From Anaerolineae bacterium (GTDB lineage Bacteria; Chloroflexota; Anaerolineae; B4-G1): a stretch of DNA of 64,000 bases. Below are positions 1-64,000 of this stretch, piece after piece. Position 1 is the first letter of the stretch, and every line of letters begins with the position of its first letter. The notes under the pieces were generated by a model that ran no database searches, was not told the DNA's origin, and was given only the letters and a program-made list of their open reading frames with translations. A program made the translations under genes and the position numbers. Location of the stretch: the NCBI GenBank assembly GCA_034432855.1, contig DAOUBA010000058.1, positions 5,483 to 69,482 of the forward strand, given 5' to 3'.

Positions 1-868
1 GCGGCAGATAGACGAACCGATCTGTCGGCATCACGCGCACCGTGTCGGTGAGAATGGGCGTGCTGTTTACCATTGCGTTGAGGGTGACGGTGTACCAGAC
101 GTAGTTGGTCAGCCCGGTCAGGGTGTAGGCGCGGGTGGGGTTGAGGATGCCGGTGATGGGCGAGGGCTGGTCGCCTGTTGGCCCCATGTAGCCGATGCGC
201 CAGGTGCTGGTGGGCGGCAAATCGGTGTGGACCTGCCAGGTCAGGTGGATGGCGCGGTCGGCCGGCGCGCCGTGGAGCACAAGCCCTTCGAGTGGGATTT
301 TGTAGATGTGAACGGCGTTGCGGGCAAAGGTGTCGCTGAATGAGCCGCCCACCACGGGCACGCTGCGGCCCTCGTCCACCACTTCGGCCAGACCGCTGAC
401 AGAGGTATCCAGCAGAAAGTTGACGTTGATGGTGGCCGGTTCGGTCACCGTGTAGAGCGCGCCGGGGATCGGGTCCGGCTCGGTCAGGCGGACGGCAAAG
501 ACATAGATGTAGCCGTCGTGGTAACGGACCATCGTGTCCACCCGGTTGGCCTGCGTGTTGGCATTATCGCTGACGTGGATGTTCGGCTCCGGGCCGAGAA
601 TGGCCGGCGCCAGGCGGGTGACCTGGTCGGTGAATTTGGCCATCGCGCCGTACCGGATGGTGTCGTATTCAAAGTAGTGAAACCAATTGATGCCTTTCAT
701 GCCGTGCACGACGTTCAGCCAGGCTTCCATAAACACCTGCTCCTCGGTTGGGGGAGGCGTTTCGTTCGCGCGGACATCGCAGACTTCGACGAAGGAGAAC
801 ATGGGGATCAGGTCATAGTTCCTGGCCACAAGGAGATCCATGGCCGCGGCACAGGTCCATCGGCCCCC
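1..868 (-). CDS. C-terminal portion of a secreted glycosidase-like protein; continues ORF 813..2945 in a different frame (probable frameshift) and runs off the window start; ends in an FN3-like domain with a ...RFVYLP tail
   Basis: Hand translation of the minus strand gives a stop-free frame from about 868 to position 1 reading MDLLVARNYDLIPMF...EQVFMEAWLNVVHGMKGINWFHYFEYD...IHLTWQVHTDLPPTSTWRIGYMGP...YTLTGLTNYVWYTVTLNAMVNSTPILTDTVRVMPTDRFVYLP. It is absent from the ORF track because it has no in-window stop. Confidence 0.45.
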
Positions 869-2945
869 GGTCGGCTTTGTTGAGGTTGACCTGCAGCCGA
901 CGCTCCAGCGGGTAAATGTCAAAGCCCATCACGTCTACGGTAAATTGCCTTTTGCCGCCAAAGATGAAGGCGTTGTTCAAAAAGTCATAGTCTGTCCCGT
1001 AAGAGCCATAGTGGGGCAAATAGGTGCCCGCCAGGTTGATGATGACGGGATGTTGTGGGTCGTGCAGATGGCTGGCATAAGTCCAGGCGCGCAGGACGGC
1101 CGGCGGCACCCGCTGGGAGTGACCGCCCAGGTCGGGCTCGTCCATCCACATCCAGCCGGCCAGCGCCGGCATATCGCGCGTGGCGGTGACATAGTCGGTC
1201 AACACGTTGATGTTGGCGTTGCGCGCAAAGTGCCGACGGCGCTCCGGCTTGAGCGGGAGGGGCAGGCCGACGTCAAACCAGCGTTCCGGGCCAAACGCGT
1301 AGAACCCGTACTTGTGGGCATTGGTCAGGTAGTCGGTCCACGTGGCGACGTTGTGCGTCTGATACCACCCTTCGGCATACAGAGCGTTAATGTAACCGTT
1401 GTTTTTCCACGCGGCCATTTCGCTCGTGTTCAGGATCCAGGGCGTCACGGGGAAGAAGGGTTGGCCGTCCACGCGGAACGCGTTGTTTTCGTCAATGCCC
1501 ACGCGCGGCGCGCCGTTGTAGGGCTTGTCCAGGTACTCGTTGATCTGGTCCAGGACGCCGCCGCCTGAATTGAGCAGTTGGGCCGTGAGGGTATAACTGC
1601 CGGCCGGCAGGTCGGCGTTGCGGAAGAGGAATTTCTCTTCAGCGGCAAGGCCGGTCTTTTCAAACACGATGGCACTGTAGCCATTGTTCCCGGCGATGCT
1701 GACCCTGAGGCGATTGGTCGGGTTGCCGTAGGCCGCGCTGGGAATTTGTGCATAGATGTACTGAGCAATGCGGGCGTGGAACGGCGCATGCCAGAGGTCA
1801 AAGCCGGTAAAAAGGTCGTTGAGGGACAGGGTACGATTGTAGATGCGCACTTCGTCCACATAGCCGTTGAACACCTGGGGATCGGAAGCCGACCGACCGA
1901 TCAGCAGGTTGCTGGTTGAGTTGGCAATCGTCCCGCTGTAGGGCAGCGTGGCCATTTCCTTGCCGTTTATAAAGGTACGCACCGCACTTCCGTCATACGT
2001 GAACGCATAATGATTCCAGTGGGTGTTGTCCACGTCATAGGCCAGGAACCAGTTCGCGCGGGCTGTGCCTCGCGTGGTGATGAGCTGGACATATAATGCG
2101 CGCCCGCTAATTTGCACGTTGAACTGCCCCGGCTTATCCAGCAGGGTCCCATAGGTGCTGGTCAGCGCCTTTTTTGCCCAGAAGGAGACGCTGATCTGGT
2201 TCAGGCCGGAAAAGACGCCGCTGTCGGTGACGCTGATGTAGGCGCCGCCGGTCAGGTTGGCGGCCTGGTTGGCAATACCGGCGACAAAACCGCCGGCGCC
2301 GCCCTGCCACTGTCCCACCAGCCCGCTGGGAGAACTGTCGGTCAGGTTGCCGTCCAGACGCATATCCAGGCGCGTGCCGGCATCAGGCCAGGGCGGGAGC
2401 TGAGGCGGCTGGCCGGTCACGGTGATGAAGGTGGTGGTGCTGGCCACCGCAGTCGGGCTGCCGATGGGGTTATCACCGGAATCAAATTGACTCCACACCG
2501 AGACGGTGAGCGTGACGGTGTAGACGCCGGGGCGCATGTAGAAATGCGAGATGGCGATCCCGCTGTCGCCGGAGTAATAGTAGGGATCGCCGAATTTGGC
2601 GACATAGTCGTCGCCAAAATCCCATTCGTAGCGCCCCTTAAGGAGCATCTGCGTGTCCGTGTAGGTGGTGCCGGTCGCATCGAACAGGACTTCCTCGCCC
2701 ACACGTATCGTGGAAGCAGGCCGCACGACAATGCGGGGTACGAGAGCAGAGGCCATACTTTCAGGGCCGTCCGCGGCCGTTGCCGCGCCGGTTAGCCATA
2801 CGTGGAGCAAGACAATGAAAGCGAGCGGGGCAAGCGTGACTGCCAAAAGCCGGGTGATTTTCATTTTTCCCTCCTTGCACAATGAAATCTGTTGCTTTAT
2901 GCACGGTGGCCGCATTCCTCCAGGTAGAGAAGAGCTACGAGCCAT
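813..2945 (-). CDS. Secreted multi-domain protein (signal peptide, PKD/Ig-like region, laminin-G/concanavalin-like domain, TIM-barrel glycoside-hydrolase-like C-terminal half); 710-aa ORF probably frameshifted into 1..868
   Basis: N-terminal signal peptide MKITRLLAVTLAPLAFIVLLHVWLTGAATAA; LamG-like motif NGYVDEVRIYNRTLSLNDLF; hydrolase-like region WMWMDEPDLGG...VINLAGTYLPHYGSYGTDYDFL. The ORF tail ...RGPMDLCRGHGSPCGQEL looks like out-of-frame read-through. Confidence 0.6.
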   Translation of the reverse strand: MARSSSLPGGMRPPCIKQQISLCKEGKMKITRLLAVTLAPLAFIVLLHVWLTGAATAADGPESMASALVPRIVVRPASTIRVGEEVLFDATGTTYTDTQMLLKGRYEWDFGDDYVAKFGDPYYYSGDSGIAISHFYMRPGVYTVTLTVSVWSQFDSGDNPIGSPTAVASTTTFITVTGQPPQLPPWPDAGTRLDMRLDGNLTDSSPSGLVGQWQGGAGGFVAGIANQAANLTGGAYISVTDSGVFSGLNQISVSFWAKKALTSTYGTLLDKPGQFNVQISGRALYVQLITTRGTARANWFLAYDVDNTHWNHYAFTYDGSAVRTFINGKEMATLPYSGTIANSTSNLLIGRSASDPQVFNGYVDEVRIYNRTLSLNDLFTGFDLWHAPFHARIAQYIYAQIPSAAYGNPTNRLRVSIAGNNGYSAIVFEKTGLAAEEKFLFRNADLPAGSYTLTAQLLNSGGGVLDQINEYLDKPYNGAPRVGIDENNAFRVDGQPFFPVTPWILNTSEMAAWKNNGYINALYAEGWYQTHNVATWTDYLTNAHKYGFYAFGPERWFDVGLPLPLKPERRRHFARNANINVLTDYVTATRDMPALAGWMWMDEPDLGGHSQRVPPAVLRAWTYASHLHDPQHPVIINLAGTYLPHYGSYGTDYDFLNNAFIFGGKRQFTVDVMGFDIYPLERRLQVNLNKADRGPMDLCRGHGSPCGQEL

Positions 2946-5442
2946 TTTTGAGAGCGAGCGGTAGATAAACCCGAAAGATGTCTTTTACGACATAAAACAT
3001 TTTCGGTGGCGTCTCCGTGCCGTTCGGCGGCGGGGCCGGATCGTAAACCGTCACCGGGAAACTGCCCACCGTGCTCACGTCGGCGGCCCTGATGGTGGCC
3101 CTCAAGCGCGTGCTGCTGACAAAAGTGGTCGGACGGTCGCTGCCGTTCCAGCGCACCACGCTATTGGCCGTAAAGCCGGCGCCGTCCACGGTCAGAGTGA
3201 AATCGGCCGCCTCGTCCACGTCGAAAAAGGACGGGTTAATGCTCAACAACGTGAGCGGGGCCGGGCCGTTGTCCACCAGGATTTTGGACGTAAATGGCGC
3301 AAGGGTCAGGCTGCCGATCACGGTGTTTTGATCCAGGTCCAGATATTGCCGGTCGCCCAGGTTGATGACTATTGCCGTCTTGCTGGCGTTGTAAAATATC
3401 TTGCCGCGCGAGGGCTCGCCCTGAGGTTGGGTAAACCAGTTGGTCTTGGAGTGGGCCTCCAGGCCGCTGAACGCCTTCCAGCCGGAGAACGTGTAGCGCG
3501 TCCAGGAGGGGCCATAGGCGATGTGATTGTTCACGTAGGGGTGAAACAGGTAGTTATAGTCCGAGGACACCCAGTTGCTGAGACTGCGCGAGTATATCGT
3601 CCAGGCCTTGCTGTTCAGCCCAAAGAGGATGTTGTTGGCTACGGTCGCGCGGGTCTCGTCGCCACCCAGGCTGATGTGCGCGGCGTACTCGGTGCCGTAG
3701 GAGGCATTGTACACCGTATTGCCGACGATGGTGCCGGTCGAGCGCTGGTAGTTGATGCCGGTGATTGTCGTGCTGATGACGGTGTTGCCACGCGCCTCCA
3801 CATCACGGGAATAGTGGTCTACGTACAGCCCCATCCCAAAGGCCGCGCGCGAGGGATGACAGCCGTCCACGTTGCCGGGGATGTCCACGATGATGTTGTT
3901 GAGCAATCGGACGTTGTACACTTCGGTCGCCGAGAGGTTGTCGGTGCCGAACGTCCTGACGCCGCCGCAGTCGGCTTTGGAATAGCAGGACTGGGTGATG
4001 AAATTCTTTTCCAGCGTCGTGTCGTGGCCGAACACATCTACGCCGTTGTAGCCGATCCGCTCCAGACGATTGTAGCGCAGCGTGTTGCCATAGCCGGAAT
4101 CGCGTGGGTCATATGTCCTGATCCGAATTCCGTCGCCGTTCTCGGTGCACTCGTCGCTGGTCTGGCCGCAGCCCATGCCGGATTTGCCCAGATTCTGGAT
4201 GAGCGCGATGTTGCGGATGACATTATCCTCGAAGGTGGATTCGGCGAAATAGCCGGTGATGCCGAAATGGTTGGCCCCATCAATGAGGTTGTTCGTGAAC
4301 GTCATATGATGTCCACCGCGCAACCCCTTGCGACCGTCGGAGGGCCGCTCCAGCCAACTGCTCAGCCGGACGCCGGCGGAATTCACGTCGCGGATGGTGA
4401 CGTTGCGCACCGTGATGTGATGATAGATATCTCGGCTCATCCCGCCCGGCGTGCCGATGCCGTGATTGAACCAGTTCTTGATCTCGAGATTGTCAATGAT
4501 GATATAGGCGGTTTCCGAGCCGTCGCTGAGCATGATGCCCCCATCCCTGATCCGGTTGGGGTCGGGGTCGGTCGCGAACACCACCGACCCTTCGATGTTG
4601 GCCGGCGTGCCCGAGTCCGAATACAGGTAGACCCGCCGCGTTCCGGCGTCATAGTACCACTCGCCGTCCCGGTCCAGCGTGGCCAGATGGTTGTTGATGA
4701 AATACCCCCAGCCGATACAATCGCCCCAACTGGAGATCAGGCAGGACAATCCTTTGTTCAGCGTCAGCGTGGTGCCGCTGGAGCCGGTGACCTGGCGTTC
4801 GAGCATGGACCAGCGGATGTTCTTGATGTGCACGATGGCGCCGGTCCAGTTTATGCCGGACGGCAGTTCGTTGTCTACAATCTGGTTGCTGCCGGCGCTG
4901 TGGCTGTCCACGAACGAATAGCCGCCGTTGGCCGTGCCCAGGTTGGGCCAGCGGCCCAGCGTCAAGCGTTGACCATTGCGGAACAACTGGTTGATGCCCA
5001 GCGGGAACGCGCTCTCCGGCACGCTGGCCCAGTAGATTTTGCCCGAGTAGACGGCCCAGCCGGTGATCGGCAGCGAACCGGAGAGGATCGGTTTATTGGC
5101 GCATCCCGCCGGGTACGAGCCGAAAGTGATCGGGGCGTCTGCCGTGCCCGCCCATTTGATGACCAGTTGCTCGGCCCGCCAGGTGTCGCCGCACTTGAAC
5201 AGCACCCGGTCGCCGGGCTGGAGGTTCAGCGAGTTGATCTTGGCAATGGTCTTGAACGGCGTTGACTCGGACCGGCCGTTGTTGCTATCGCTGCCGCCCG
5301 AACTGGAGACGTAATAGGTCGTCCCGCCAGCCCGCACAGGCCGGACCGGCATGATGGCGGCGAGCAGGGCCAGCGAGATGACAAACCGGAGGGGAAATCC
5401 CAAAATAGAAAAAACGGTCTTGTTCATAGCCACCTCACGCAT
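2935..5442 (-). CDS. Secreted right-handed parallel beta-helix (pectate-lyase-fold) protein, 835 aa, with a C-terminal Ig/IPT-like domain and a ...FRVYLPLALKNGS tail
   Basis: Signal peptide (true start possibly MNKTVFSIL.. at 5427); N-cap GTTYYVSSSGGSDSNNGRSESTPFKTIAKI..LQPGDRVLF typical of beta-helix carbohydrate-active proteins; repeated NN[IL]I / G-rich beta-helix rungs; the C-terminal region VTVYDPAPPP...YVVKDIFRVYLPLALKNGS. Confidence 0.6.
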   Translation of the reverse strand: MREVAMNKTVFSILGFPLRFVISLALLAAIMPVRPVRAGGTTYYVSSSGGSDSNNGRSESTPFKTIAKINSLNLQPGDRVLFKCGDTWRAEQLVIKWAGTADAPITFGSYPAGCANKPILSGSLPITGWAVYSGKIYWASVPESAFPLGINQLFRNGQRLTLGRWPNLGTANGGYSFVDSHSAGSNQIVDNELPSGINWTGAIVHIKNIRWSMLERQVTGSSGTTLTLNKGLSCLISSWGDCIGWGYFINNHLATLDRDGEWYYDAGTRRVYLYSDSGTPANIEGSVVFATDPDPNRIRDGGIMLSDGSETAYIIIDNLEIKNWFNHGIGTPGGMSRDIYHHITVRNVTIRDVNSAGVRLSSWLERPSDGRKGLRGGHHMTFTNNLIDGANHFGITGYFAESTFEDNVIRNIALIQNLGKSGMGCGQTSDECTENGDGIRIRTYDPRDSGYGNTLRYNRLERIGYNGVDVFGHDTTLEKNFITQSCYSKADCGGVRTFGTDNLSATEVYNVRLLNNIIVDIPGNVDGCHPSRAAFGMGLYVDHYSRDVEARGNTVISTTITGINYQRSTGTIVGNTVYNASYGTEYAAHISLGGDETRATVANNILFGLNSKAWTIYSRSLSNWVSSDYNYLFHPYVNNHIAYGPSWTRYTFSGWKAFSGLEAHSKTNWFTQPQGEPSRGKIFYNASKTAIVINLGDRQYLDLDQNTVIGSLTLAPFTSKILVDNGPAPLTLLSINPSFFDVDEAADFTLTVDGAGFTANSVVRWNGSDRPTTFVSSTRLRATIRAADVSTVGSFPVTVYDPAPPPNGTETPPKMFYVVKDIFRVYLPLALKNGS

Positions 5443-5502
5443 AAGGTCGTGAACTCGATCTGGGATAAGGTTCTCCCCCAGTTTTCGGTCAGCGCCCCCG
5501 CA

Positions 5503-5650
5503 ACACCAGCGGCAGGTACACGAACCGGTCCGTCGGCATCACCCGCACCGTGTCGGTGAGAAACGGCGTGCTGTTCACCATCGCGTTGAGGGTGACGGTG
5601 TACCAGACGTAGTTGCGTAGGAATGGCTGAATAGTTACCTTGTTCCTTCA
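5503..5650 (-). pseudogene. Remnant 3' gene fragment (about 48 codons, no start codon) duplicating the C-terminus of the window-start gene
   Basis: The minus-strand translation ...RNYVWYTVTLNAMVNSTPFLTDTVRVMPTDRFVYLPLVLRGR* is near-identical at DNA level to positions 1..110 (about 90% identity by eye). It lies in the intergenic space between the beta-helix gene start and the iclR stop. Confidence 0.55.
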
Positions 5651-16156: not shown

Positions 16157-16342
16157 ATGATAGACACAATATTCAACCTGTGCATCTGGCTGTTGTACCG
16201 GCTGGCCGGCCTGCTCCACACAACTTACCAGGCGGTCAATGTATGGATTTTTGTGGTGATCTGGCCGTTGATCACCCTCGCCCTGATCGTAGCCGTGGTG
16301 GTGCAGCGGTCGGAGATTCGGCGACTGCGCGCCAGGAGGTGA
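16157..16342 (+). CDS. Small hydrophobic protein (61 aa, two predicted TM helices, basic C-tail), translationally coupled to the downstream radical SAM gene
   Basis: Strong RBS gaaggag 8 nt upstream of ATG; sequence MIDTIFNLCIWLLYRLAGLLHTTYQAVNVWIFVVIWPLITLALIVAVVVQRSEIRRLRARR; its stop lies 5 nt before the rSAM ATG. Confidence 0.5.
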   Translation: MIDTIFNLCIWLLYRLAGLLHTTYQAVNVWIFVVIWPLITLALIVAVVVQRSEIRRLRARR

Positions 16343-16347
16343 GCCCG

Positions 16348-17793
16348 ATGAAAGTCAAGATGATTCTGCCGGCGCTGACCGAGGCCAAAAGCCCGTATTG
16401 GCGCCCCATCAAGTACTCGCTCTTCCCGCCGTTGGGACTGGCGACGCTGGCGGGGTATCTCTCCGCGGACGACGAGGTCGTAATCCAGGATGAGCACGTC
16501 GAGACGCTGGGCCTGGACGACGAGCCGGACCTGGTTGCGATTGAGGTGTACATCACCTCGGCGCGACGCGCCTACGAACTGGCCGACCACTACCGGGCGC
16601 GGGGGGCGCACGTGGCGCTGGGCGGCCTGCACGTGACCGCACTGCCCGAGGAAGCCACCCGCCACGCCGATACGATCTTTCTCGGCCCCGGCGAGGACAC
16701 CTGGCCCGCCTTCCTGGCCGATTTGCGGGCGGGACGGCCGGGGCGGGTCTACCGCTCAACCGTGCGCTGCCTGGCGGGGATGCCACGCCCGCGCCGCGAT
16801 CTCATCAAGCGCCACCTCTATCTTGCGCCCAATTCGCTCGTCGTCTCGCGCGGCTGCCCGCACCACTGCGATTTCTGCTACAAGGATGCCTTCTTCGCGG
16901 GCGGCAAGTCGTTCTACACCCAGCCGCTGGACGAGGCGCTGGCGGAGATCGAATCGCTGCCGGGCCGCCACCTGTTTTTCCTCGATGATAACATCTTGGG
17001 CGACGCGCGTTTCGCAGCGGCTCTATTCGACGCGATGCGTGGGATGGGGCGGGTATGGCAGGCAGCGGGAACGGTGCAGGCTGTTCTCCAACCCGGCCTC
17101 CTGGAAAAGGCCGCGGCGAGCGGCCTGCGCAGCCTGTTCGTCGGCTTCGAGACGCTTCATCCGGGCAATCTGAAGGCGCAGCACAAGATGCATAATCTCA
17201 ACCGTGATTACCGCGTCGCCATCCGCCGTCTGCACGATCACGGGGTCATGGTCAACGCGAGTTTCGTCTTTGGGATGGACGAGGACAACGAGACGGTGTT
17301 CGACCGCACAGTGGAATGGGCGCTCGAGCAGGGCATCGAAACGGCGACGTTCCACATCCTCACCCCCTACCCCGGCACGGCGCTCTTTGCGAGGATGGAG
17401 GCCGAGGGGCGTATCACGACCTACGACTGGGACCTCTATGACACGCGCCACGTGGTCTTCCGTCCGGCCAGGATGTCGGCAGAGGCGCTGGAAGCAGGCT
17501 ACTGGCGCGCCTACGAGCAGTTCTACCGCTGGGGATCCATCTTCCGCGCAGCCTGGGTGCAAGGTACGTGGCGCGAGCGGCTACGCCATCTGGCCTATGC
17601 GGGGGGCTGGAAGAAATTCGAGCCGCTATGGGACGTGATCATCCGCGCCGGTCAGGTCTCGCGGTTTCTGCCGCTGTTGGAGAGGGTGCTGGATGGGGCA
17701 AGTTTGCAAGTAGGCAAGTTTGCAAGTATGCAAGCATGCAAGTATGCAGGTGGGCAGAGGTATGCAGGGTGGCAAACGGGGGTGCGTTTATGA
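16348..17793 (+). CDS. B12-binding radical SAM protein (class B rSAM with a DUF4070-type C-terminal region)
   Basis: N-terminal cobalamin-binding domain (..VVIQDEHVETLGLDDEPDLVAIEVYITSARRAYELA..); CxxxCxxC cluster SRGCPHHCDFCYKD; DUF4070-like C-terminus. RBS aggaggtgag. The last roughly 30 codons read through the 8-bp tandem repeats. Confidence 0.85.
   Translation: MKVKMILPALTEAKSPYWRPIKYSLFPPLGLATLAGYLSADDEVVIQDEHVETLGLDDEPDLVAIEVYITSARRAYELADHYRARGAHVALGGLHVTALPEEATRHADTIFLGPGEDTWPAFLADLRAGRPGRVYRSTVRCLAGMPRPRRDLIKRHLYLAPNSLVVSRGCPHHCDFCYKDAFFAGGKSFYTQPLDEALAEIESLPGRHLFFLDDNILGDARFAAALFDAMRGMGRVWQAAGTVQAVLQPGLLEKAAASGLRSLFVGFETLHPGNLKAQHKMHNLNRDYRVAIRRLHDHGVMVNASFVFGMDEDNETVFDRTVEWALEQGIETATFHILTPYPGTALFARMEAEGRITTYDWDLYDTRHVVFRPARMSAEALEAGYWRAYEQFYRWGSIFRAAWVQGTWRERLRHLAYAGGWKKFEPLWDVIIRAGQVSRFLPLLERVLDGASLQVGKFASMQACKYAGGQRYAGWQTGVRL
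17695..17775. repeat. Tandem 8-bp repeat array, GCAAGTNT x about 9-10, at the extreme 3' end of the rSAM ORF
   Basis: gcaagttt gcaagtag gcaagttt gcaagtat gcaagcat gcaagtat gcaggtgg ... read directly. The period is 8, not a multiple of 3. Confidence 0.6.
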
Positions 17794-20814: not shown

Positions 20815-22269
20815 ATGGATACAAAGGGGTTAACCCGCCGTGAGTTCATTCGCGGCGCAGCATTGACCGGCGTTGGACTGGCAGCAGCAGCATGCGCCCC
20901 CAAACCCACACCGACTGCAGCGCCTGCTGTGGCTCCTGCCCCTGCACTCCCTGCTGAAGAGAAGGAGAGGGAAAGACTGGCCCAGCAATACAAGAACGCC
21001 GAGCCCGGGCAAAAGTTCATGATTGGCCACATCACTTGGGGGCTGGCGCAAGAATATCTGATGATGTGCTACCAGGCTTGTGAACAGGCGTGTAGACAAC
21101 TCAATCTGGATTTTGCCGGTGCGGTGGCCGAGACCGATGCGGCGTGGCTCGAGACAACCGAGAGCATGATCGCTGCTGGTGCAAAGGCAATAGTCTACAA
21201 CTGCCCATCCGCGGCTATCCTGGCCGAGCTGGCAAGGATCTGCAACGAGAACAACGTGTTCATGGCCACACACTTCGGATATACCGGGGATATGTTCCCA
21301 GGAGACCTTGGGCCGCGATGGGTCGTAGACAACACGCCGCTGTCGGACGAGCAGACTTTTCTCCCATTGATGCTGCTCTTCGAGAAGATGAGGCAAAATG
21401 GGAAGACCAAGTTACTGCACCACCAGGCGCACAAAACGGCCGCTACCTGCTCCACCGTCTACATCAACCTTGGAGTCTTCCAGGCCTGGAAGTTCTATCC
21501 CGAGATGCAGGTGTTAGGCCACCAGTACGGCAACTGGAACTTTGAAGGTGGGAGAGCAGCAGCCGAGGCCTCGCTGGCAGTTCGGACGGACTATGAGGCT
21601 CTATGGGGCGCCAACGACTCGCAAACTACGGGCGCCTTGAGGGCATGCGAAGACCGTGGCTTGAGGATCGGCCCCTACACGGCCTCGAGAGACATGGAGA
21701 TGACTACGGCGGAAGAGATCCTGAAAGGGAATTTCCTCGTGACCGCTGGATTCGCCATTCCCTACTTTGGCGGAAGAATGGTCCCCATGCTCTACGATAT
21801 GTGCGTTGGCGCCTGGTATCCGCTGAAGGACGAGATGGTTCAGGCCGGCAGGATAGATTGTTACGGCCGGCCTGGTGAAGTCGAGCAACTGGCCGAGGCT
21901 GCCCGTATCACTTACCATCCGAGTTTCAAGCTGGGCCCAACCCAGGACAATCTGAATCAGGTATTGAAGCAAATGAAAGCGTCGCCGCCGGAGTATCCGT
22001 ACGACTTCAGGCTAATCTCTGTCTCAAAGTGTAGGGAACTCGGTCTGACGTATGACCGCCATGCCGGTGGCGGAACCTATCTGGGCCAGCATGACTATTA
22101 TTTCCCAGCGAAACTCAAAAAGTTCGGCAGCATCGAGGCCCTCAAGGCCCACGTCGCCGCTCTCCATGAGCACTTTCTCGACTTCAGCTGGGCCGACACG
22201 TGGGAGCAGGCAGAAGAGTATGCGAAAAAGTTTCCGCCGGAACTGAAGACGGAGCCTATCTGGCTGTAA
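20815..22269 (+). CDS. Periplasmic sugar-binding protein (PBP type I fold) with a Tat-type signal and lipobox; substrate-binding component of the adjacent ABC transporter
   Basis: Twin-arginine leader MDTKGLTRREFIRGAALTGVGLAAAAC; type-I PBP core FMIGHITWGLAQEY...AKAIVYNCPSAAILAELARICNENNVFMATHF; strong RBS aaaaaggagg. Confidence 0.7.
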   Translation: MDTKGLTRREFIRGAALTGVGLAAAACAPKPTPTAAPAVAPAPALPAEEKERERLAQQYKNAEPGQKFMIGHITWGLAQEYLMMCYQACEQACRQLNLDFAGAVAETDAAWLETTESMIAAGAKAIVYNCPSAAILAELARICNENNVFMATHFGYTGDMFPGDLGPRWVVDNTPLSDEQTFLPLMLLFEKMRQNGKTKLLHHQAHKTAATCSTVYINLGVFQAWKFYPEMQVLGHQYGNWNFEGGRAAAEASLAVRTDYEALWGANDSQTTGALRACEDRGLRIGPYTASRDMEMTTAEEILKGNFLVTAGFAIPYFGGRMVPMLYDMCVGAWYPLKDEMVQAGRIDCYGRPGEVEQLAEAARITYHPSFKLGPTQDNLNQVLKQMKASPPEYPYDFRLISVSKCRELGLTYDRHAGGGTYLGQHDYYFPAKLKKFGSIEALKAHVAALHEHFLDFSWADTWEQAEEYAKKFPPELKTEPIWL

Positions 22270-22361
22270 TGGCGGATTGGCGATTCCCTTTTCCACCCTA
22301 TCTGCTAGTTCTAACACGGTTGGTATGCGAGTAGCAAGAGTCGTGATTGGAAGAGGCTAGT

Positions 22362-23894
22362 ATGGCAATGCCGATGGATGTCCCATTGTTGGAAGTCAAG
22401 AGCGTTTCCAAGACCTTCGACGGAGTCGTGCGCGCCTTAGACGATGTGAGTATAGCCGTCTACCCCAATGAAATAGTGGGCGTTGTGGGAGAAAACGGGG
22501 CCGGCAAATCTACGCTCATGAAGATTCTGGTAGGTGTTTATTCGCCAGATAAGGGGGAATTGTATTATCGGGGAAGAAAAGTCCCATTTCCCAAGAATCC
22601 CAAAGAGGCGGCTCAAAGGGGAATCTCGATTGTCTATCAGGAAAAAGGGGTCATCCCCCTCTTGAGGGTATACCAATTCCTCCTCTTGGGGCACGAGGAT
22701 AAGTATGTCAGATTCTCGGGGCTGCAGATAGACAAAATGAAGGGGCTTGCAAGCGAGATATTGGAGGAGTTTCATGTAAAGTGCGATGTCGAGAGTTTTA
22801 TGTATGAACTGCCGCTTTCCACCCAGAAGATGGTTGAAATCGTGAGGGCGATTCTGAGTGTAAGGTTGGAGCATGGGGATGACGACGTTACGTCGGTCAT
22901 CATACTCGACGAGCCAACCGCACCGTTAACCATCGAGGAACGTCGGGAGTTGTTCAGTGACATACTGAACATGAAGAAGAATGCCTCGTTCGTCTTTGTC
23001 TCACACATCATACCCGAAGTGATGGAATTCACAGACAGAGTACACGTGCTGCGGGATGGTCGGCTGGTGGCTCACTACGACCTATCCAGGGAGAAAGTAA
23101 CAGAGGAGGATCTGTTCAGGGCGATAGTCGGTAGAGAATCTTCCGAGTACGTCTACAGACCGGAAACTAGGGTGGTAGGCGAGGAGATCGTTTTAGCGGT
23201 CAGGAATTTGACTAAGAGTGGCTGCTATTATGATGTCTCGTTCGAACTGCAGAAGGGCGAATGCATAGGAATCTTTGGGCCGGCGGGATCAGGCAAGAGC
23301 GAGATCATACAGACAATCGCCGGCCTCGTAAGTTTTGACAAGGGGGGCCTGAGCGTCAAAGGCCAAGAAGTGATGGCCGACGAGCCCCCTCACGCTAGAT
23401 TAGAGAGGGGTATTGGATATTTCTCGGGAGAGACCGGAAAAGAACTGTTTCTGAACTGGCCGATCACGAAGAACATCTCTATAGTCAATATTGAGAAGAT
23501 ATCAGGAAGGTCCATCCCGGTGATCAGTTTCAAAGCCGAGAGGAAGATGGCAGAAGAGATCGTAAGGAGGCTGAGAATCAAAGCCCCAAGCGTTAGCGCA
23601 GATTGCTATTCTCTGAGTGGCGGCAACAAGCAGAAGGTCTCTGTGGGGAAATGGATTGAGCGGAACCCCGACATACTTTTGCTAGAGGATCCGACGATAG
23701 GAATAGATGTGGGAGCCAGAAGCGATATCTTTGAAACCATCTTGGAGATGAAGATGCGCGGCACCTCGATGATCCTTGTGAGCGACGACCCTAAAGAATA
23801 CTCCATACTGTGCGATAGGATCATGTTCATCAAGAACGGGATCGTTCAAAGAGTCCTCAGTCCGGAACAGTTCGGGGAGATGATGGTGGCATGA
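22362..23894 (+). CDS. Sugar ABC transporter ATP-binding protein with duplicated NBDs (CUT2/RbsA-MglA type)
   Basis: Two Walker A motifs (GENGAGKST ; GPAGSGKSE), two signature motifs (LSTQKMVEI ; LSGGNKQKV) and a D-loop. Confidence 0.9.
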   Translation: MAMPMDVPLLEVKSVSKTFDGVVRALDDVSIAVYPNEIVGVVGENGAGKSTLMKILVGVYSPDKGELYYRGRKVPFPKNPKEAAQRGISIVYQEKGVIPLLRVYQFLLLGHEDKYVRFSGLQIDKMKGLASEILEEFHVKCDVESFMYELPLSTQKMVEIVRAILSVRLEHGDDDVTSVIILDEPTAPLTIEERRELFSDILNMKKNASFVFVSHIIPEVMEFTDRVHVLRDGRLVAHYDLSREKVTEEDLFRAIVGRESSEYVYRPETRVVGEEIVLAVRNLTKSGCYYDVSFELQKGECIGIFGPAGSGKSEIIQTIAGLVSFDKGGLSVKGQEVMADEPPHARLERGIGYFSGETGKELFLNWPITKNISIVNIEKISGRSIPVISFKAERKMAEEIVRRLRIKAPSVSADCYSLSGGNKQKVSVGKWIERNPDILLLEDPTIGIDVGARSDIFETILEMKMRGTSMILVSDDPKEYSILCDRIMFIKNGIVQRVLSPEQFGEMMVA

Positions 23895-24859
23895 AGATGG
23901 AGAGAAATCGGCTGATCGCGGTCATGATGCAGACCGTGAAGGCTCACCCTGTCATTGTCGTGCTAATCGCTCTCGTTGCGATGTTTTCAGGTTTATATCC
24001 GGAAAGATTTCTATCACCCTTGAATTTCTCGACAATTCTGAAACAGTTTGTAACGCTTACATTATTTGCGCTTGGCCCTTCAATGATCGTGGTGACCGGC
24101 TCGCTAGACCTGTCGTTCGTGGGGATCTGGATGCTGGGAGGTATCCTGGTGTGGCTTTTCACGCCGATCCTGGGGACATTCTCAATTCTTGTCATTCCCT
24201 TATTGGGGTTAGTCACGGGGTTCTTCGTCGGCGTCGTACAAGTCAAGGCAAAAATACCCTCTTTCATCCTGACGTTGAGTTTATTGGTCACATACTGGGG
24301 ATTGACGGCCACGCTCTCAGGGGGATACCCGAGGCCCGTTCGTGGATACGAGTTTATCACTGCGCCGTTGATACCCTATCTGCCCACGGCCTTTCTATGG
24401 TCTATCCCAATCATAGCCGCTGCCGTGTTCATCATGAAACGCACCAAGGTAGGCACGTATCTATACGCCATCGGGTCAAACGAAGAAGGGGCCCGGTTAG
24501 CCGGAATCAACGTTGATAGGTACAAGATACTGGCTTTCTCGTTAAGCGGACTGTTTACGGGCATAGGGTCAATTATCCTGTTCCAACACCTCGGAGGCGC
24601 GGCGCCGGTGGAACTCAATCTAAATAACATGGTGTGGCCGCTCGTTGCCATCGTTCTGGGTGGAACGCCGCTCGTTGGGGGGAGCGGCGGGCCCCAAAGA
24701 ACGATACTTGGCGCGTTGACCTTTGCCGTGGTGAATCGCGGATTGGTCCTGTCGCTATTGCACCCCGAGGCGATACAACTCCTTTTGGGGTTATTGCTCA
24801 TCATCTCCATTGTAGTGGGGAGTAGGGGGTTGAAGTTGAAAGGGGTAACGATCACATGA
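23891..24859 (+). CDS. ABC transporter permease (RbsC/branched-chain-type BPD_transp_2)
   Basis: Polytopic; ..GSNEEGARLAGINVDRYKILAFSLSGLFTGIGSII.. conserved permease loop; 4-nt overlap with the ATPase gene. Confidence 0.85.
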   Translation: MKMERNRLIAVMMQTVKAHPVIVVLIALVAMFSGLYPERFLSPLNFSTILKQFVTLTLFALGPSMIVVTGSLDLSFVGIWMLGGILVWLFTPILGTFSILVIPLLGLVTGFFVGVVQVKAKIPSFILTLSLLVTYWGLTATLSGGYPRPVRGYEFITAPLIPYLPTAFLWSIPIIAAAVFIMKRTKVGTYLYAIGSNEEGARLAGINVDRYKILAFSLSGLFTGIGSIILFQHLGGAAPVELNLNNMVWPLVAIVLGGTPLVGGSGGPQRTILGALTFAVVNRGLVLSLLHPEAIQLLLGLLLIISIVVGSRGLKLKGVTIT

Positions 24860-25833
24860 AGGGCGAGAAAACGATGGTCAGACCACCGCTTGCCCAGGAA
24901 TGGCTTCGAAGCAATAGGACTACAGTCGGGCTGATTGTCGCTGCGCTGGTGATTATCGCCGGATTTCAGGTGGTGAACCCTTTCTTTCTCAGTTATGATG
25001 GAATACTCACGTTGGTCTACGCTATGTCATACTTCCTGATAGCCGCCTGCGGATTGACTTTCGTCATCATGATGGGCTCTTTCGACTTCTCGGTGGTCAG
25101 CGTATTGAAACTCGCTGCGCTCCTATGCGTCCTGTACATTGACCGGCTCGGACTCTGGGTAATTCCCCTGGCTTTACTGATCAGCGTGGGGTTTGGCTTC
25201 ATCAACGGGCTATTCTTCGCCAGATTCAACGTCCCCTCGTTCATGGCGACGCTCGGCGTTTCCGTCGTGGTCGAGGGAATCGCGTTGTATCTCTCGAAAG
25301 GCTTTCTCCACATCATGGGCAATGCGACCTTCAGAGCCCTGGCAACGACCTTTATAGCCGGCTTGCCCTCGATATTCTATTGGGCGATGGGCATCTGGCT
25401 CATCAGCACTTTCGTGGCTCTGTGCACGCCCTTCGGAAGGCGCATCTACGCGGTCGGAGGCAACCCGATAGGCGCCGGACTCTCGGGCATAGACGTGGAG
25501 AGGCACAGAATTTATGGCTTCATGCTCAGCAGTTTCTTTGCCGGTCTGGCAGGAGTTTTGTACATGGCGCAGTTGGGGGGCGGCTCTATGGAAATCGGTG
25601 CAGACCTGGCCATACCGCTTTTCGCGAGCGTGGTCGCAGGCGGCACAGCCCTCACGGGAGGCATAGGGGGGCCGCATAGGACTCTGCTTGGAGTGGTCAT
25701 CCTTACCTGGCTGCGAGCCGGGATGTTAATGCTTGCAATCGGTCGTGATGTGCAGATGATCACGTTTGGCCTGATCGCCCTGGCCGTGGCTATCGCCACA
25801 ATAGATAGGAAACGGATAAAGTTTGTCAAGTGA
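24856..25833 (+). CDS. ABC transporter permease (second BPD_transp_2 subunit)
   Basis: ..AVGGNPIGAGLSGIDVERHRIYGFMLSSFFAGLAGVL..; overlaps the upstream permease by 4 nt. Confidence 0.85.
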   Translation: MKGEKTMVRPPLAQEWLRSNRTTVGLIVAALVIIAGFQVVNPFFLSYDGILTLVYAMSYFLIAACGLTFVIMMGSFDFSVVSVLKLAALLCVLYIDRLGLWVIPLALLISVGFGFINGLFFARFNVPSFMATLGVSVVVEGIALYLSKGFLHIMGNATFRALATTFIAGLPSIFYWAMGIWLISTFVALCTPFGRRIYAVGGNPIGAGLSGIDVERHRIYGFMLSSFFAGLAGVLYMAQLGGGSMEIGADLAIPLFASVVAGGTALTGGIGGPHRTLLGVVILTWLRAGMLMLAIGRDVQMITFGLIALAVAIATIDRKRIKFVK

Positions 25834-25875
25834 GTTCGCCGATTACCTCCGATAACAGCATCTTTCCGTCCGTAG

Positions 25876-26640
25876 ATGGCAGGCGCGTACATGCAGGCCT
25901 TGAAGAATAAAGTGGCTATCGTCACGGGTTCGTCGAGGGGCATTGGCAGAGCAATTGCCATTGCTTTTGCCAAAGAAGGCTGCAAGGTGGTGGTGAACTA
26001 TTGCCATTCCAGAGAGCATGCCGTCGCAGTTTCAGGGGAGATCGAAAAAGTTAACCCGAAAGGAAGTATCGTTGTCCAGGCTGATGTATCGGTGGAAGAC
26101 GACGTGGAAAGAATGGTGAACGAAACCATTGCCGCATTTGGAACACTGCACATCCTGGTGAATAACGCCAGTATTGCTCATAGATGCGCGTTCCTCGATA
26201 TGTCACTTGGCGAATGGGAACGCATGATCCGCAACGACCTCACGAGCGTCTTTCTGTGTACCCGCATCGCTATTCCACATATTCTGAAAAACGGCTGGGG
26301 CAGGATCATCAACATTGCTTCGACGTCTGGAATAACAGGCGGAACCTCCGGTGCCCATTACGCGGCTGCGAAGGGCGGCGTGATTGCGTTGACAAAGGCC
26401 CTCAGCAGCGAGTTCGCACCGTATGGAATAACGGTTAACGCCATCGTGCCAAGTAAAATAGAGACGGATATGCTGTGGGAATCTCTTGATGAGAAAGGCA
26501 GGGAGGCGACACTCAAAAAGATTCCTGTAGGAAGGTTCGGCAGGCCGGAGGAAATCGCAAACCTCGCTCTTTTTCTCGCTTCTGACGACGCCGGATACAT
26601 TACGGGCGAAACGATTGTAGCGTCAGGAGGATACCGATAA
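25876..26640 (+). CDS. SDR family oxidoreductase (short-chain dehydrogenase/reductase)
   Basis: TGSSRGIGRAIA cofactor motif; NNAS..; catalytic YAAAKGG (YxxxK). Confidence 0.85.
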   Translation: MAGAYMQALKNKVAIVTGSSRGIGRAIAIAFAKEGCKVVVNYCHSREHAVAVSGEIEKVNPKGSIVVQADVSVEDDVERMVNETIAAFGTLHILVNNASIAHRCAFLDMSLGEWERMIRNDLTSVFLCTRIAIPHILKNGWGRIINIASTSGITGGTSGAHYAAAKGGVIALTKALSSEFAPYGITVNAIVPSKIETDMLWESLDEKGREATLKKIPVGRFGRPEEIANLALFLASDDAGYITGETIVASGGYR

Positions 26641-51381: not shown

Positions 51382-53145
51382 CTATACCGTGTCGTCAGCC
51401 TGACGCTTGAATGCCGTACCGATGAAGACGGCCAGGATCAGAAGGATCGCCAACCCCAGCAGGATCGGCCAGGCGGGCTCGGCGGACGTCGTGGGAGCAG
51501 GTGACATCGGTGTGGGCGGGGCGGTGGGTGGGGCCAGCGTGGCGGTGGGGGATGGTGTATCGGTAGGCAGCGGGGTGGGAGACGGTGTCTCGGTTGGGAG
51601 TGGGGTGGAGGTCGGCGTTTCGGTGGGGGTCGCCGTCGCTGTCGGTGTGGGCACGGGAGTGGGAGATGGCGTCACAGTCTCCCCGGCCACGGCGGGCGTC
51701 CCGGTAAGCACAGGCGTGGCCGTCGGGGTTGGAAGTGGTGTGCCGCCAACCTCTTCGACGAGCAGGTACGTCTTGCCGCCGATGATGCAGGGAGGGTGTG
51801 GGATATCCGCATTGGGGGATACCGGCGGGCAGCGGGCCCCGGAAAGGTTCAGCATATATTTCCCGCTCACCGGCGCGATGATCTGCTCCACCCCGGCCTG
51901 ATCAACCAGCCGGGCGTGGGCTGCGATGGCAGGTAATGAGACTGTGACGTCCCTCTGCTTGCGCGCCCACACGACGCGCGTCGTGCGATCGCCCCGATTG
52001 AGCGTGACCACGCTGTAGAGCGCATGGCGCTCCTCACGGGCCGAGATGGTGCCGGCGTAGTGGGTTGTGATCAGCCGGTAGGCGTCGAATGCCGGGCGGC
52101 GGCTATGGTCTAGGCGGATGATGCCGAACGGCTCCTCTCCCACCCGTGGTGCGTTGTCCACCCACCTGTAGACCGCGATGCGCTCCACCCCCTGGCTGAG
52201 CGCCAGCGCGAATGCCTGGAGCAGAAAACCGGCCTGTTCTTCCAGCGTGATGTCGAAATTCGCCCCCGGCAGGCTCCAGTAGGGCGGGTCGGCGTTGGAT
52301 GGCGCGTTGGTCTCGTTGATCCAGATGGGTTTGGTCAGCCCGTGGGCGGAGAGCGTCGCGCGGGTCTCGCCGACAATCGCAGGGATCGTTTCGGTCTGGA
52401 AGTAAATGTGCAGCGTGACGACGTCGAAATAGTAGCCGTGTTCCGGTCCGCTGGGGTCCTGTTTGGCGACCGCCAGAAAGCGAGCCAGGTAGGTCTTGTC
52501 GTGATGGAAGGTCAGGCCGGCCAGGTGGATGACGACGTTGGGGTTGGCCTGGTGGGCAGCAAGGTAGGCGACCTTGAGCAGTTGGTAGTATTCCTCTACC
52601 GAGCCGCACCACTCGGCGCCAAACGTGGCGGGCGGAATATTCGGCTCGTTCCAGATGATCCAGCGATTGATGCGCCCGGCGTACCTGCCGACGACGCGAC
52701 GCACGACCGCTGCCCACGCGTTGCCGGGATCGTCTAGCGGCAAATCCAGGCCGCGAGGGACGCCGCAATCAGGCAACCCATCGGTGGCCCAGGCCGGGGT
52801 GTTGATCAGGAGACCGACCACCTCGCGTCCGGCGGCCTCGTCCCGCGCCAGCCATACGTCTCGCTCCTGCAGGTGCGTTTCGTTCCAGTCCTGGGCGCTA
52901 TGAGGTTGCAGTTGCGACCAGTCGAACAGGATGCGTTCCCAGCCCACGCCGGCTTCGGTTGCAGCAGCCACATCCCAGAATGCCTCGACCGCGCCGAAGC
53001 GCCGGTCAGGAGGCGGGGTCTGGGCGAGAGCCGGCACGGTCAATAATGAGCACAGGACAGATGAGCAAATGACAAATGAGCGAAAGGCGAAAGGCGAAAG
53101 GCGATAGGCGATATGTGATTGGGGCTTGGTGTGAGGTTCGATCAA
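51382..53145 (-). CDS. Cell-anchored glycoside hydrolase (GH5-like TIM barrel, WNEPN motif) with Pro/Thr-rich linker and C-terminal TM anchor
   Basis: Signal peptide; ..RWIIWNEPNIP.. (NEP catalytic acid/base context) and ..IWINETNAPS..; linker PTPTATPVLTGTP...TPSPTPLPTDTPSPT; C-terminal WPILLGLAILLILAVFIGTAFKRQ. Confidence 0.6.
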   Translation of the reverse strand: MIEPHTKPQSHIAYRLSPFAFRSFVICSSVLCSLLTVPALAQTPPPDRRFGAVEAFWDVAAATEAGVGWERILFDWSQLQPHSAQDWNETHLQERDVWLARDEAAGREVVGLLINTPAWATDGLPDCGVPRGLDLPLDDPGNAWAAVVRRVVGRYAGRINRWIIWNEPNIPPATFGAEWCGSVEEYYQLLKVAYLAAHQANPNVVIHLAGLTFHHDKTYLARFLAVAKQDPSGPEHGYYFDVVTLHIYFQTETIPAIVGETRATLSAHGLTKPIWINETNAPSNADPPYWSLPGANFDITLEEQAGFLLQAFALALSQGVERIAVYRWVDNAPRVGEEPFGIIRLDHSRRPAFDAYRLITTHYAGTISAREERHALYSVVTLNRGDRTTRVVWARKQRDVTVSLPAIAAHARLVDQAGVEQIIAPVSGKYMLNLSGARCPPVSPNADIPHPPCIIGGKTYLLVEEVGGTPLPTPTATPVLTGTPAVAGETVTPSPTPVPTPTATATPTETPTSTPLPTETPSPTPLPTDTPSPTATLAPPTAPPTPMSPAPTTSAEPAWPILLGLAILLILAVFIGTAFKRQADDTV

Positions 53146-62597: not shown

Positions 62598-62864
62598 TCA
62601 ATAACCCCTCATCACCAGCGGCAGGTAGACCAGGTACTGTGCCGTGCCGCACCAGAAGCCGGCGCAGAGTTCATAATTCCCTTGCGAGACCGTGCCTACG
62701 ATCGGCTGGCCGATGGTGCCGTCCAGGGAGATGCCCCCGGCCTCCGTGTGCCCGCCCCCGCCGCCGAGGACGGACCAGGGGATGGCTGTTGTGCCCTGCG
62801 CCAACGCTGTGCCGGCCAGCATAAGGAGAGCCAGCGCCGTTGCGAAAAGTGCCATCCGTTTCAC
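62598..62864 (-). CDS. Small secreted protein (88 aa) ending in the ...YLVYLPLVMRGY tail motif
   Basis: Signal peptide MKRMALFATALALLMLAGTALA; mature part GTTAIPWSVLGGGGGHTEAGGISLDGTIGQPIVGTVSQGNYELCAGFWCGTAQYLVYLPLVMRGY. Confidence 0.5.
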   Translation of the reverse strand: MKRMALFATALALLMLAGTALAQGTTAIPWSVLGGGGGHTEAGGISLDGTIGQPIVGTVSQGNYELCAGFWCGTAQYLVYLPLVMRGY

Positions 62865-62879
62865 GGTTCACCTCCGGCG

Positions 62880-64000
62880 CTATGGGCAGGTGTAGGCGTT
62901 GTAACTGCCGTCGTACACCTGAAAGCAGGTGCGCGTGCCGCCGGTGCGGTTGAGGCCGCCGTCCAGTTGGCTGACGGCAAGGTAGAGGACTCCGCTGTTC
63001 TCTCTCACTGCTGCGGTGCTGCCTCTGAAGCGGCAGGAGTCGGCCCGCACTGTACCATATGACGTGTAGAGGCCGTAATTGGATGTGCCGTTCTCCCCCA
63101 GCGCGAAGGCGCCCTGAACGGTCAGGTCGCCGACGTTGTGCATCCCGGCTGCCAGGTTGCCGCCCTGGGCGATGAAGGAGCCGCTGTAGACCCGGGCCAC
63201 AGAAGTGCCCACTTCGTTTCTCAGCCCCTGGTTATTGGTGGTTCCTCCCCACGCTCGCGCCGTCACGTCGTGGGCCTCCAGGACGGCGCCGTTGGTATTG
63301 TGAATCGCCCAGGCGTAGGTTTCCCCCGCCGCATTGGCAGTGAAAGAGCCGCCCCGCAGGATGGCGTTTCCATCTGCCTTGTTGTTGCAGAAGGCAGTCG
63401 CTGAATATGTTGCATTTTCTCCCTGCGCCGTCACTCCCTCGGCTTCCAGGTGGGCATCAGAGTTGTAGATGCCGTAGGCAGAATGTCCCCCGCTGCCCAG
63501 GAAGAAGCCACCCTGTAGGAGAACGGTGGGATAGGTGTCGCTCTCCAGGCCGACGTTGGTGGTGCTGGCACCTGTGCCGCTGGCGCGCACATCTGCTGCA
63601 CCCAAGAAGGTGCCCAAGCCGCCGTACACCCGGATGCCATAGGCGTTGGTGCCTCCGGTGCCGGTGAACGTCCCGCCGTGCAGTGTGACTTCCGGTCCAC
63701 CATCCGTATCGGCTTCAACGCGCAGGCCGACGTTGTCGGTGCCGGTCTTGCCTGCAAAGGCCGTGACATTCTCCAGCGTAATTTGGGTGTCGCCCGTTAG
63801 GTAGATAGCGATGTTGGAGGTGCCGGTCCCTCCGGCCTCCACGTACACATTGGACACCCGCACGTTGGTGACGTCCGCGCCGTATATTCCATAGTTCGTC
63901 GCGCCGGTGCCGACGTTGGAGATGCTCAGGTCGCGCACGGTGGTATCACTGGCCAGTTCCAGTGTCCGCCCGCCGTCAAACGAAGGCGCCGCCTGGATGA
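62880..64000 (-). CDS. Secreted repetitive beta-helix-like protein (partial; N-terminus lies beyond the window end)
   Basis: About 20-residue Gly/Thr/Asn-rich rungs (..TNYGIYGADVTNVRVSNVYVEAGGTGTSNIAIYL.. ; ..NAYGIRVYGGLGTF.. ; ..SAYGIYNSDAHLEA..); Cys-containing C-terminus ..CFQVYDGSYNAYTCP. Confidence 0.55.
   Translation of the reverse strand, partial: IQAAPSFDGGRTLELASDTTVRDLSISNVGTGATNYGIYGADVTNVRVSNVYVEAGGTGTSNIAIYLTGDTQITLENVTAFAGKTGTDNVGLRVEADTDGGPEVTLHGGTFTGTGGTNAYGIRVYGGLGTFLGAADVRASGTGASTTNVGLESDTYPTVLLQGGFFLGSGGHSAYGIYNSDAHLEAEGVTAQGENATYSATAFCNNKADGNAILRGGSFTANAAGETYAWAIHNTNGAVLEAHDVTARAWGGTTNNQGLRNEVGTSVARVYSGSFIAQGGNLAAGMHNVGDLTVQGAFALGENGTSNYGLYTSYGTVRADSCRFRGSTAAVRENSGVLYLAVSQLDGGLNRTGGTRTCFQVYDGSYNAYTCP

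Follow-up and report, generated by a model that had tools for sequence, protein, structure and literature searches.

Three secreted proteins encoded in a 64,000-nucleotide stretch of the genome of an Anaerolineae bacterium (contig DAOUBA010000058.1; the whole stretch is hereafter called the window) end in the YLP box, a linear tag of 8–11 residues of the form aromatic-x-[VIL]-Y-L-P-[LVI]-[VIT]-x-[RK], followed by 0–5 arbitrary residues. Many unrelated Sec-exported surface and extracellular proteins of filamentous Chloroflexota (Anaerolineae, with Thermoflexales and Caldilineales among them, and Chloroflexia) bear this box, and we are fairly confident that it serves as a tag for surface retention or sorting, read by a dedicated component of the cell envelope. 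The original prediction, made from the DNA of the window, had suggested a new kind of C-terminal recognition element. The motif, however, is already in NCBIfam, which holds two models for the tail: an 11-position one, NF050076 (sort_motif_YLP), and a 10-position one, NF053834 (ultrashort_CTERM). Each bears the description 'YLP-box putative sorting motif-containing protein' and is assigned to the phylum Chloroflexota. Motif, extreme C-terminal position and phylum are all alike, with no essential difference, and the proteins of the window are ordinary YLP-box members that add instances to a known family. The further suggestion, that of a lineage-specific C-terminal sorting or attachment signal, agrees with the view of the NCBIfam curators, and the sorting role is one that we likewise infer.

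Judged by the curated cut-offs (15 bits for NF050076, 10 bits for NF053834), an 88-amino-acid (aa) protein of the window passes both models (NF050076, 15.0 bits for the whole protein and 17.2 for the tail; NF053834, 12.6 and 15.0 bits). The tail of an orphan gene fragment, described below, passes NF053834 with 13.2 bits and stays below the cut-off of NF050076 with 14.9. Compared with NF050076, V and R are replaced by A and K in the tail of a beta-helix protein of the window, and the tail of the first gene has Q at x. Across a sample of 76 carriers, NF050076 was found at E ≤ 0.1 in 30.

The independent carriers in the window are a GH141-like beta-helix protein (carrier 1), a frameshifted PKD/LamG protein (carrier 2) and the 88-aa protein (carrier 3); signal peptides are visible on all three (MNKTVFSILGFPLRFVISLALLAAIMPVRPVRA in carrier 1). 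All YLP-box tails of the window are on the minus strand, and the three secreted proteins share the pattern [VIL]-Y-L-P-[LV]-[VA]-x-[RK] plus 2–3 residues. Carrier 1 ends in FRVYLPLALKNGS (also given as ...DIFRVYLPLALKNGS) and carrier 3 in YLVYLPLVMRGY (also given as ...QYLVYLPLVMRGY), each directly followed by the stop. The gene of carrier 2, which leaves the window at its start, reads ...MPTDRFVYLP at bases 2–13; its remaining tail had been guessed as LVLRG, whereas the contig gives YLPLIQRGD and a stop. Translated in six frames, the 64 kb has just five YLP[LIVM] strings, of which three lie no more than 10 codons from a stop (9–10 codons, counted from Y), and a sixth YLP string, truncated by the window start, is likewise near a stop. 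In every window copy the stop falls 2–3 residues past R/K. As had been predicted, neither a transmembrane (TM) helix nor a basic tail follows the motif: only 2–3 hydrophobic residues and one R/K come after the Pro.

Four unrelated proteins or remnants had been thought to end in the motif. The tails are real, but only three of them are independent, because the fragment near 5500 repeats the window start in direct orientation (positions 1–107 versus 5509–5615, 107 nucleotides, 92% identity). This repeat leaves an orphan 3′ gene end between the gene of an IclR regulator and that of the beta-helix protein, and suggests a past duplication or insertion of a two-gene block of about 5.5 kb. The orphan ends in DRFVYLPLVLRGR (also given as ...VRVMPTDRFVYLPLVLRGR and ...MPTDRFVYLPLVLRGR), with its stop at 5489–5491 after 43 open codons. 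Independence was overstated in a second respect, since the tails of carrier 2 and of the orphan follow one and the same FN3-like last module, which is also found in a 760-aa gene beyond the window. Since one copy of the four is a DNA repeat, the motif could be taken as due to chance or as a DNA-level feature, such as a terminator or a repeat element, without a function in the protein. We give this explanation practically no chance of being correct, because it is contradicted by several lines of data. The copies differ in synonymous codons (TAT CTA CCG CTC versus TAC CTG CCG CTG), and therefore the constraint acts on the peptide and not on the DNA. The VYLPLVx[R/S] DNA pattern matches twice in the window, against 0.00 matches expected from 100 shuffles. 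Finally, frame and position before a stop are fixed in most of the Chloroflexota matches listed in the wider scan described below (63 of 87), and the box is kept across orthologues of 65–95% identity.

These orthologues are those of carrier 1, of which 120 were listed. The Leu-Pro core is present at the tail in all 120, with R/K four residues later in nearly all. When residues are counted relative to the Pro (n=119), Y is found at position −2 in 76%, L at −1 in 94%, P in 99% and R/K at +4 in 94% of the listed sequences. Of the 119, 98 end exactly at R/K (0–3 further residues overall); the flanks are variable, and there is no sequence conservation upstream of position −5. The best orthologue listed (95% identity) is labelled Anaerolineae, and the closest ones are Anaerolineae or Thermoflexales. 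Homologues of the 88-aa protein (87–110 aa in length) also end in the box, in 11 of 11 cases.

The AlphaFold2 model of carrier 1 (62-sequence alignment; predicted local distance difference test, pLDDT, 87.6; predicted template modelling score, pTM, 0.86) consists of a beta-helix followed by an Ig-like domain. In a Foldseek search the model is nearest to the GH141 protein BT_1002 (5mqp, E 3.8e-18), followed by GH120 and GH136, and carrier 1 is, as modelled, glycoside-hydrolase-like. An Ig-like 'choice-of-anchor Z' (CoaZ) domain at aa 731–811 (NF058597, 3.2e-25) stands directly ahead of the tail. The last Ig-like strand of the model spans aa 814–819, and the box (aa 825–832) lies beyond it, within a segment (aa 820–835) that has no secondary structure and a pLDDT of 67 and then 38. 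The box is thus outside the fold and of low pLDDT, and therefore appears in the model as a free unstructured tail rather than as the last strand of a shared domain. The model of the 88-aa protein was too poor for use (pLDDT 56). A phmmer search with the CoaZ domain plus tail, aimed at homologues with another anchor in place of the box, found 13,323 hits among 1.84 billion representatives; the best 150 are very large repeat proteins in which hardly any anchor can be recognised.

The original prediction had allowed for a shared terminal beta-strand of a common small domain, which would make the tail the last strand of one ordinary FN3/Ig domain. Within the window and its surroundings this would fit carrier 2, the orphan and the 760-aa neighbour, where the common FN3-like module ends in ...VRVMPTDRF just before the box. 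Elsewhere, however, the box follows the Ig-like CoaZ domain, a beta-helix ending in 'DIGAYE', PKD, CBM60, cohesin and DUF11 domains, and a 60-aa Gly-rich core. Together with the unstructured position of the box past the last modelled strand and the lack of conservation upstream of −5, this contradicts the shared-strand explanation, which we consider very improbable.

To see how far the motif extends beyond the window, one genome per species was scanned for the pattern GTNTAYCTNCCNCTNGTNNTNMGN (185,579 species). The scan gave at least 120 loci, and Chloroflexota account for 85 of the 120 listed. Among the matches listed, those in Chloroflexota have a stop 0–4 codons past R in 63 of 87 cases (65 of 87 within 0–5 codons), the C-terminal ones lying after open frames of hundreds of codons, with 0–5 variable residues past R/K. 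In other phyla only 6 of 35 listed matches are near a stop, all of them after frames of 8–43 codons and therefore in non-coding frames. The predicted enrichment at C-termini was thus borne out, and only in Chloroflexota. The loci with C-terminal boxes, among the matches listed, belong to Anaerolineae, Thermoflexia, Caldilineales and Chloroflexia (including Roseiflexus and Herpetosiphonaceae), and no locus with a Dehalococcoidia or Ktedonobacteria label is among those of the listed C-terminal boxes. Anaerolineae and Chloroflexia predominate among the loci listed. Both listed matches from Limnocylindria are internal, in a conserved protein unrelated to the box carriers. This protein of about 800–990 aa, which has a weak DNA-methylase hit, carries the octapeptide VYLPLV[IVM]R internally (..DEERR-VYLPLVIR-AP..ALG.VD.IWYVR); it was seen in Chloroflexia, Limnocylindria and one metagenome-assembled genome (MAG) of Steroidobacteraceae (loci L016, L017, L037, L042, L064, L079, L085 and L019) and is unrelated to the tag.

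The carriers are diverse. A scan of 76 of them gave 64 Pfam families, among them Beta_helix, DUF11, PKD, CarboxypepD_reg, FG-GAP and the peptidases M14, C25 and M28, and a crude hydrophobicity test finds a hydrophobic signal at the N-terminus of 39 of 50 complete carriers. Choice-of-anchor Q domains occur in 17 of the 76 and choice-of-anchor T domains in five; their family names suggest that in other lineages such domains stand ahead of different sorting signals. In one Thermoflexales MAG (L009:1-7489) three consecutive genes are boxed, including those of a gingipain-like C25 peptidase with a propeptide and an M14 carboxypeptidase.

About 90% of the boxes are C-terminal, 3–10 residues past the last folded domain, with one box per protein and no TM helix. 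The box is nevertheless not strictly C-terminal, since about 10% of the sampled Chloroflexota boxes in long open reading frames (ORFs) are internal, at domain borders (Table 1). Proteins with an internal box have that box alone and no C-terminal one. Some internal boxes lie 5–10 residues past a beta-sandwich module (CBM60, cohesin or PKD), and others come directly after the signal peptide or anchor, ahead of GHL10, TolB-like/GH88, beta-helix or RHS repeats. By a rough estimate, 1–3 chance matches are expected within the Chloroflexota sample, and most internal boxes can therefore be read as real.

The YLP box resembles the signals of the LPXTG/sortase and PEP-CTERM/exosortase systems in being a short, lineage-specific, Pro-containing signature at the C-terminus of unrelated proteins with signal peptides (PMC1569441), and in the types of cargo, which include choice-of-anchor domains. 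It differs from both in having neither a TM helix of about 20 residues nor a basic cluster, in its internal occurrences (about 10%) and in that no sortase or exosortase was found nearby. Measured against the definition of LPXTG (PMC1569441), the tails have no Thr-Gly signature, and 2–3 hydrophobic residues with a single R/K are all that follows the Pro. They also have no Pro-Glu-Pro signature, TM helix or Arg cluster of the PEP-CTERM type, and no PEP-CTERM tails were seen among the 603 ORFs of the sampled loci. With the C-terminal domain of the type IX secretion system (T9SS), which is cleaved by the C25-family sortase PorU, the box has in common that it tags secreted glycosidases, peptidases and adhesins, and C25 peptidases are among the YLP cargo. 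The T9SS domain is a folded beta-sandwich of about 80–100 residues, found in diderm Bacteroidota. In contrast, the YLP box is predicted by AlphaFold2 to be an unstructured peptide of about 8 residues, in carrier 1 within an unstructured tail of about 16 residues past the Ig-like CoaZ domain, and the NCBIfam hits listed for carriers 1 and 3 include no model of a T9SS C-terminal domain. Since TM helix, basic cluster and folded C-terminal domain are all absent, the box is not an LPXTG signal, a PEP-CTERM signal or a T9SS C-terminal domain. By analogy only, it may also be likened to TonB boxes and PDZ ligands, as a short exposed beta-prone peptide with possible strand addition and some positional freedom. 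Unlike in PDZ ligands, its distance from the carboxylate varies (0–5 residues), and with these variable residues and the internal boxes it does not have the fixed carboxylate register of PDZ-type ligands and of the substrates of tail-specific proteases.

After Sec export, the exposed peptide would be recognised by a dedicated envelope component, which would keep the protein at the cell surface or sort it there; this would make the box the counterpart of the LPXTG, PEP-CTERM and T9SS C-terminal-domain signals of other organisms. Two grounds for such a reader are the analogy with LPXTG and PEP-CTERM (PMC1569441) and the position of the box after choice-of-anchor domains. The most likely step, which we propose tentatively, is TonB-box-like docking, with the peptide left uncleaved and bound by a receptor, because internal and N-proximal boxes exist and because there is no segment for retention in the membrane.

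Nearly as likely in our ranking is sortase-like processing, in which a peptidase or transpeptidase cuts within the box or just past it, for example after R/K, trimming 0–5 residues. The new C-terminus might be linked to an envelope polymer, or the cut might give all carriers the same ...YLPxxxR-COOH end, by which they would be recognised. Processing of this kind is found in all characterised C-terminal tags that are lineage-specific and borne by diverse surface proteins (LPXTG, PEP-CTERM; PMC1569441). The box itself resembles a miniature tripartite signal (YLP, then 2–3 hydrophobic residues, then one basic residue), the extensions past R/K, at which 98 of the 119 listed orthologues end, are unconstrained, and the boxed cargo itself includes gingipain-like C25 and M14 peptidases. 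These families cut at Arg/Lys or at C-terminal residues, a specificity of possible relevance to a trimming of the box after R/K. However, no TM segment is present to hold the substrate at the membrane, the box is not preceded by a long wall-spanning linker, and no candidate enzyme was found in the neighbourhoods examined. Moreover, cleavage at the single internal or N-proximal boxes (L030, L056, L008 and L020) would free the main domain instead of anchoring it.

A third possibility needs no receptor. The 6–7 hydrophobic residues could enter the outer leaflet of the membrane, or stall in the lateral gate of SecY, and the terminal R/K would serve as a 'positive-inside' stop one residue long, so that the protein is tethered. 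The make-up of the box, hydrophobic residues with an invariant basic residue behind them close to or at the carboxyl end, would be consistent with such an anchor at the membrane interface, as would the short linker to the last domain and the absence both of a TM helix and of any partner gene found. Nonetheless, the conservation of Y-L-P, above all of the near-invariant Pro, is too specific for it, hundreds of exported residues follow the internal boxes, and the limitation to certain classes of Chloroflexota argues for a specific partner. We therefore regard it as improbable.

Several observations weigh against a dedicated reader that docks the peptide. Literature searches on the YLP motif and on sorting in the cell envelope of Chloroflexi found no paper on the motif, its mechanism or a partner. 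All-versus-all clustering of the 603 ORFs of the Chloroflexota loci revealed no recurrent box-less neighbour, with the locus of the unrelated conserved protein as the sole exception, and no partner gene was found in the window, whose remaining genes include neither a peptidase nor a sortase, nor a sortase on the 80-kb contig, most of which the window covers. A missing partner in the neighbourhood is, on the other hand, usual for dispersed sorting systems. The characterised prokaryotic C-terminal sorting signals are all cleaved, and the tripartite LPXTG and PEP-CTERM signals also have a TM segment (PMC1569441), so that docking has no close precedent among them; nor would position-independent docking need the strong C-terminal preference of the box. 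Furthermore, the isolated tail of the beta-helix protein scores 13.3 bits with NF050076, below the cut-off of 15, although its orthologues keep the box, and the taxon labels of the MAGs are coarse.

Two candidates for the partner were rejected. A 'class F sortase' hit on a 581-aa TSP3 protein is noise (12.6 bits against a cut-off of 166). The boxed C25 peptidase, considered as a PorU-like sortase, has a gingipain-type propeptide and looks like cargo.

The flanks of the window were read from contig CAZSEQ010000001.1 (79,975 bp, GCA_964605935.1), of most of which the window is the reverse complement. Seven boxed genes (one of them degenerate) and the orphan copy are present on this 80-kb contig, grouped at both of its ends; four (one degenerate) are just outside the window (Table 1). 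All boxed carriers on the contig have an N-terminal signal peptide. Carrier 2 is called as two overlapping genes on the minus strand, of 683 aa (813–2945) and 286 aa (2–886). An independent Logan contig has the same sequence in the frameshift region, and carrier 2 may be a pseudogene, or the frameshift may be a read-level error common to both assemblies.

Table 1. Boxed genes, boxes and gene fragments in the window and its surroundings, and loci with internal boxes.
Feature	Position	Strand	Details
YLP box of the beta-helix protein	2935..2970	-	V-Y-L-P-L-A-L-K-N-G-S + stop, aa 825-835; V825 through the stop of the 835-aa ORF
Carrier 1, secreted right-handed beta-helix protein	2935..5442	-	835 aa; called as 830 aa from ATG at 5427
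Orphan 3′ gene fragment	5489..5615	-	last ~42 codons of FN3-like module + box; direct repeat of window 1-107
Start of carrier 2 YLP box (V-Y-L-P), truncated by window edge	1..13	-	contig tail FVYLPLIQRGD + stop (L123:14587-15447)
Carrier 2, secreted PKD + Laminin_G_3 + FN3-like protein	1..2945	-	frameshift near 813-886
YLP box of the 88-aa protein	62598..62630	-	V-Y-L-P-L-V-M-R-G-Y + stop
Carrier 3, 88-aa secreted protein	62598..62864	-	signal peptide + Gly-rich repeat core ending CAGFWCG + box
760-aa beta-helix protein	beyond window base 1		ends ...FVYLPLVMRGAKAQ + stop
647-aa FG-GAP/DUF11 protein	beyond window base 1		ends ...YPVYLPVVTK + stop
93-aa paralogue of the small protein	beyond base 64000		ends ...QYRVYLPLVLRNF + stop
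527-aa beta-helix protein	beyond base 64000		degenerate box ...WLYLPLVGHF... + 12 more residues
Internal or N-proximal single boxes	L030, L056, L008, L020, L031, L051, L108, L113		including two RHS-repeat proteins and a GHL10 enzyme (box right after signal anchor)

The gene of the 88-aa protein belongs to a conserved operon (window 62598–64000, minus strand, and L121:5185-10267; also L125–L127) with the order [~300 aa secreted][92–100 aa small YLP protein][594–598 aa secreted][87–88 aa small YLP protein]. The secreted protein of 594–598 aa ends in Y(S/T)CP and has no box. The small YLP proteins consist of a signal peptide, 2–3 'GGGY.L...GQ...G' repeats, GFW and the box, and match no Pfam or NCBIfam family besides the box; they may act as tagged adaptors for the large proteins of the operon, which carry no tag.

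The other genes of the window encode sugar ABC transporters, sugar catabolism proteins and regulators. The GC content is 0.51–0.54 over the sugar ABC transporter genes at 22001–26000, against 0.60–0.69 elsewhere in the window. A 587-aa protein without a Pfam hit (51382–53145, minus strand) has a Pro/Thr-rich linker, one TM helix and KRQADDTV at its end; these form a C-terminal membrane anchor of the conventional type, in the same organism as the boxed proteins. On the plus strand, at about 16157–17793 (L130:5343-6979), a 61-aa ORF lies directly upstream of a B12-binding radical SAM gene, and the two may be a pair of peptide precursor and maturase.

The above results add to the NCBIfam entries a quantified and phylum-restricted enrichment of the box at C-termini and structural evidence, from an AlphaFold2 model, for a free tail, and the internal cases, with one box per protein, constrain the mechanism. 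It is conceivable, if rather unlikely, that the YLP box defines a sorting pathway without a TM step, whose machinery would be no relative of sortase, exosortase, rhombosortase or PorU. It would read the single tag of each protein wherever this is exposed, whether C-terminal, between modules or directly behind the signal peptide, and dock or process the surface enzymes of filamentous Chloroflexota; internal boxes would then mark points of cleavage or hand-over in multi-module proteins, for example RHS toxins. Sludge, sediments and hot springs are rich in Chloroflexota, which secrete many enzymes that degrade polysaccharides and proteins and have an unusual envelope. If the box is indeed a tag read by a dedicated envelope component, these 8 residues without a TM helix would be the shortest surface-sorting signal of prokaryotes, and its reader would represent new envelope biology and a possible tool for display.

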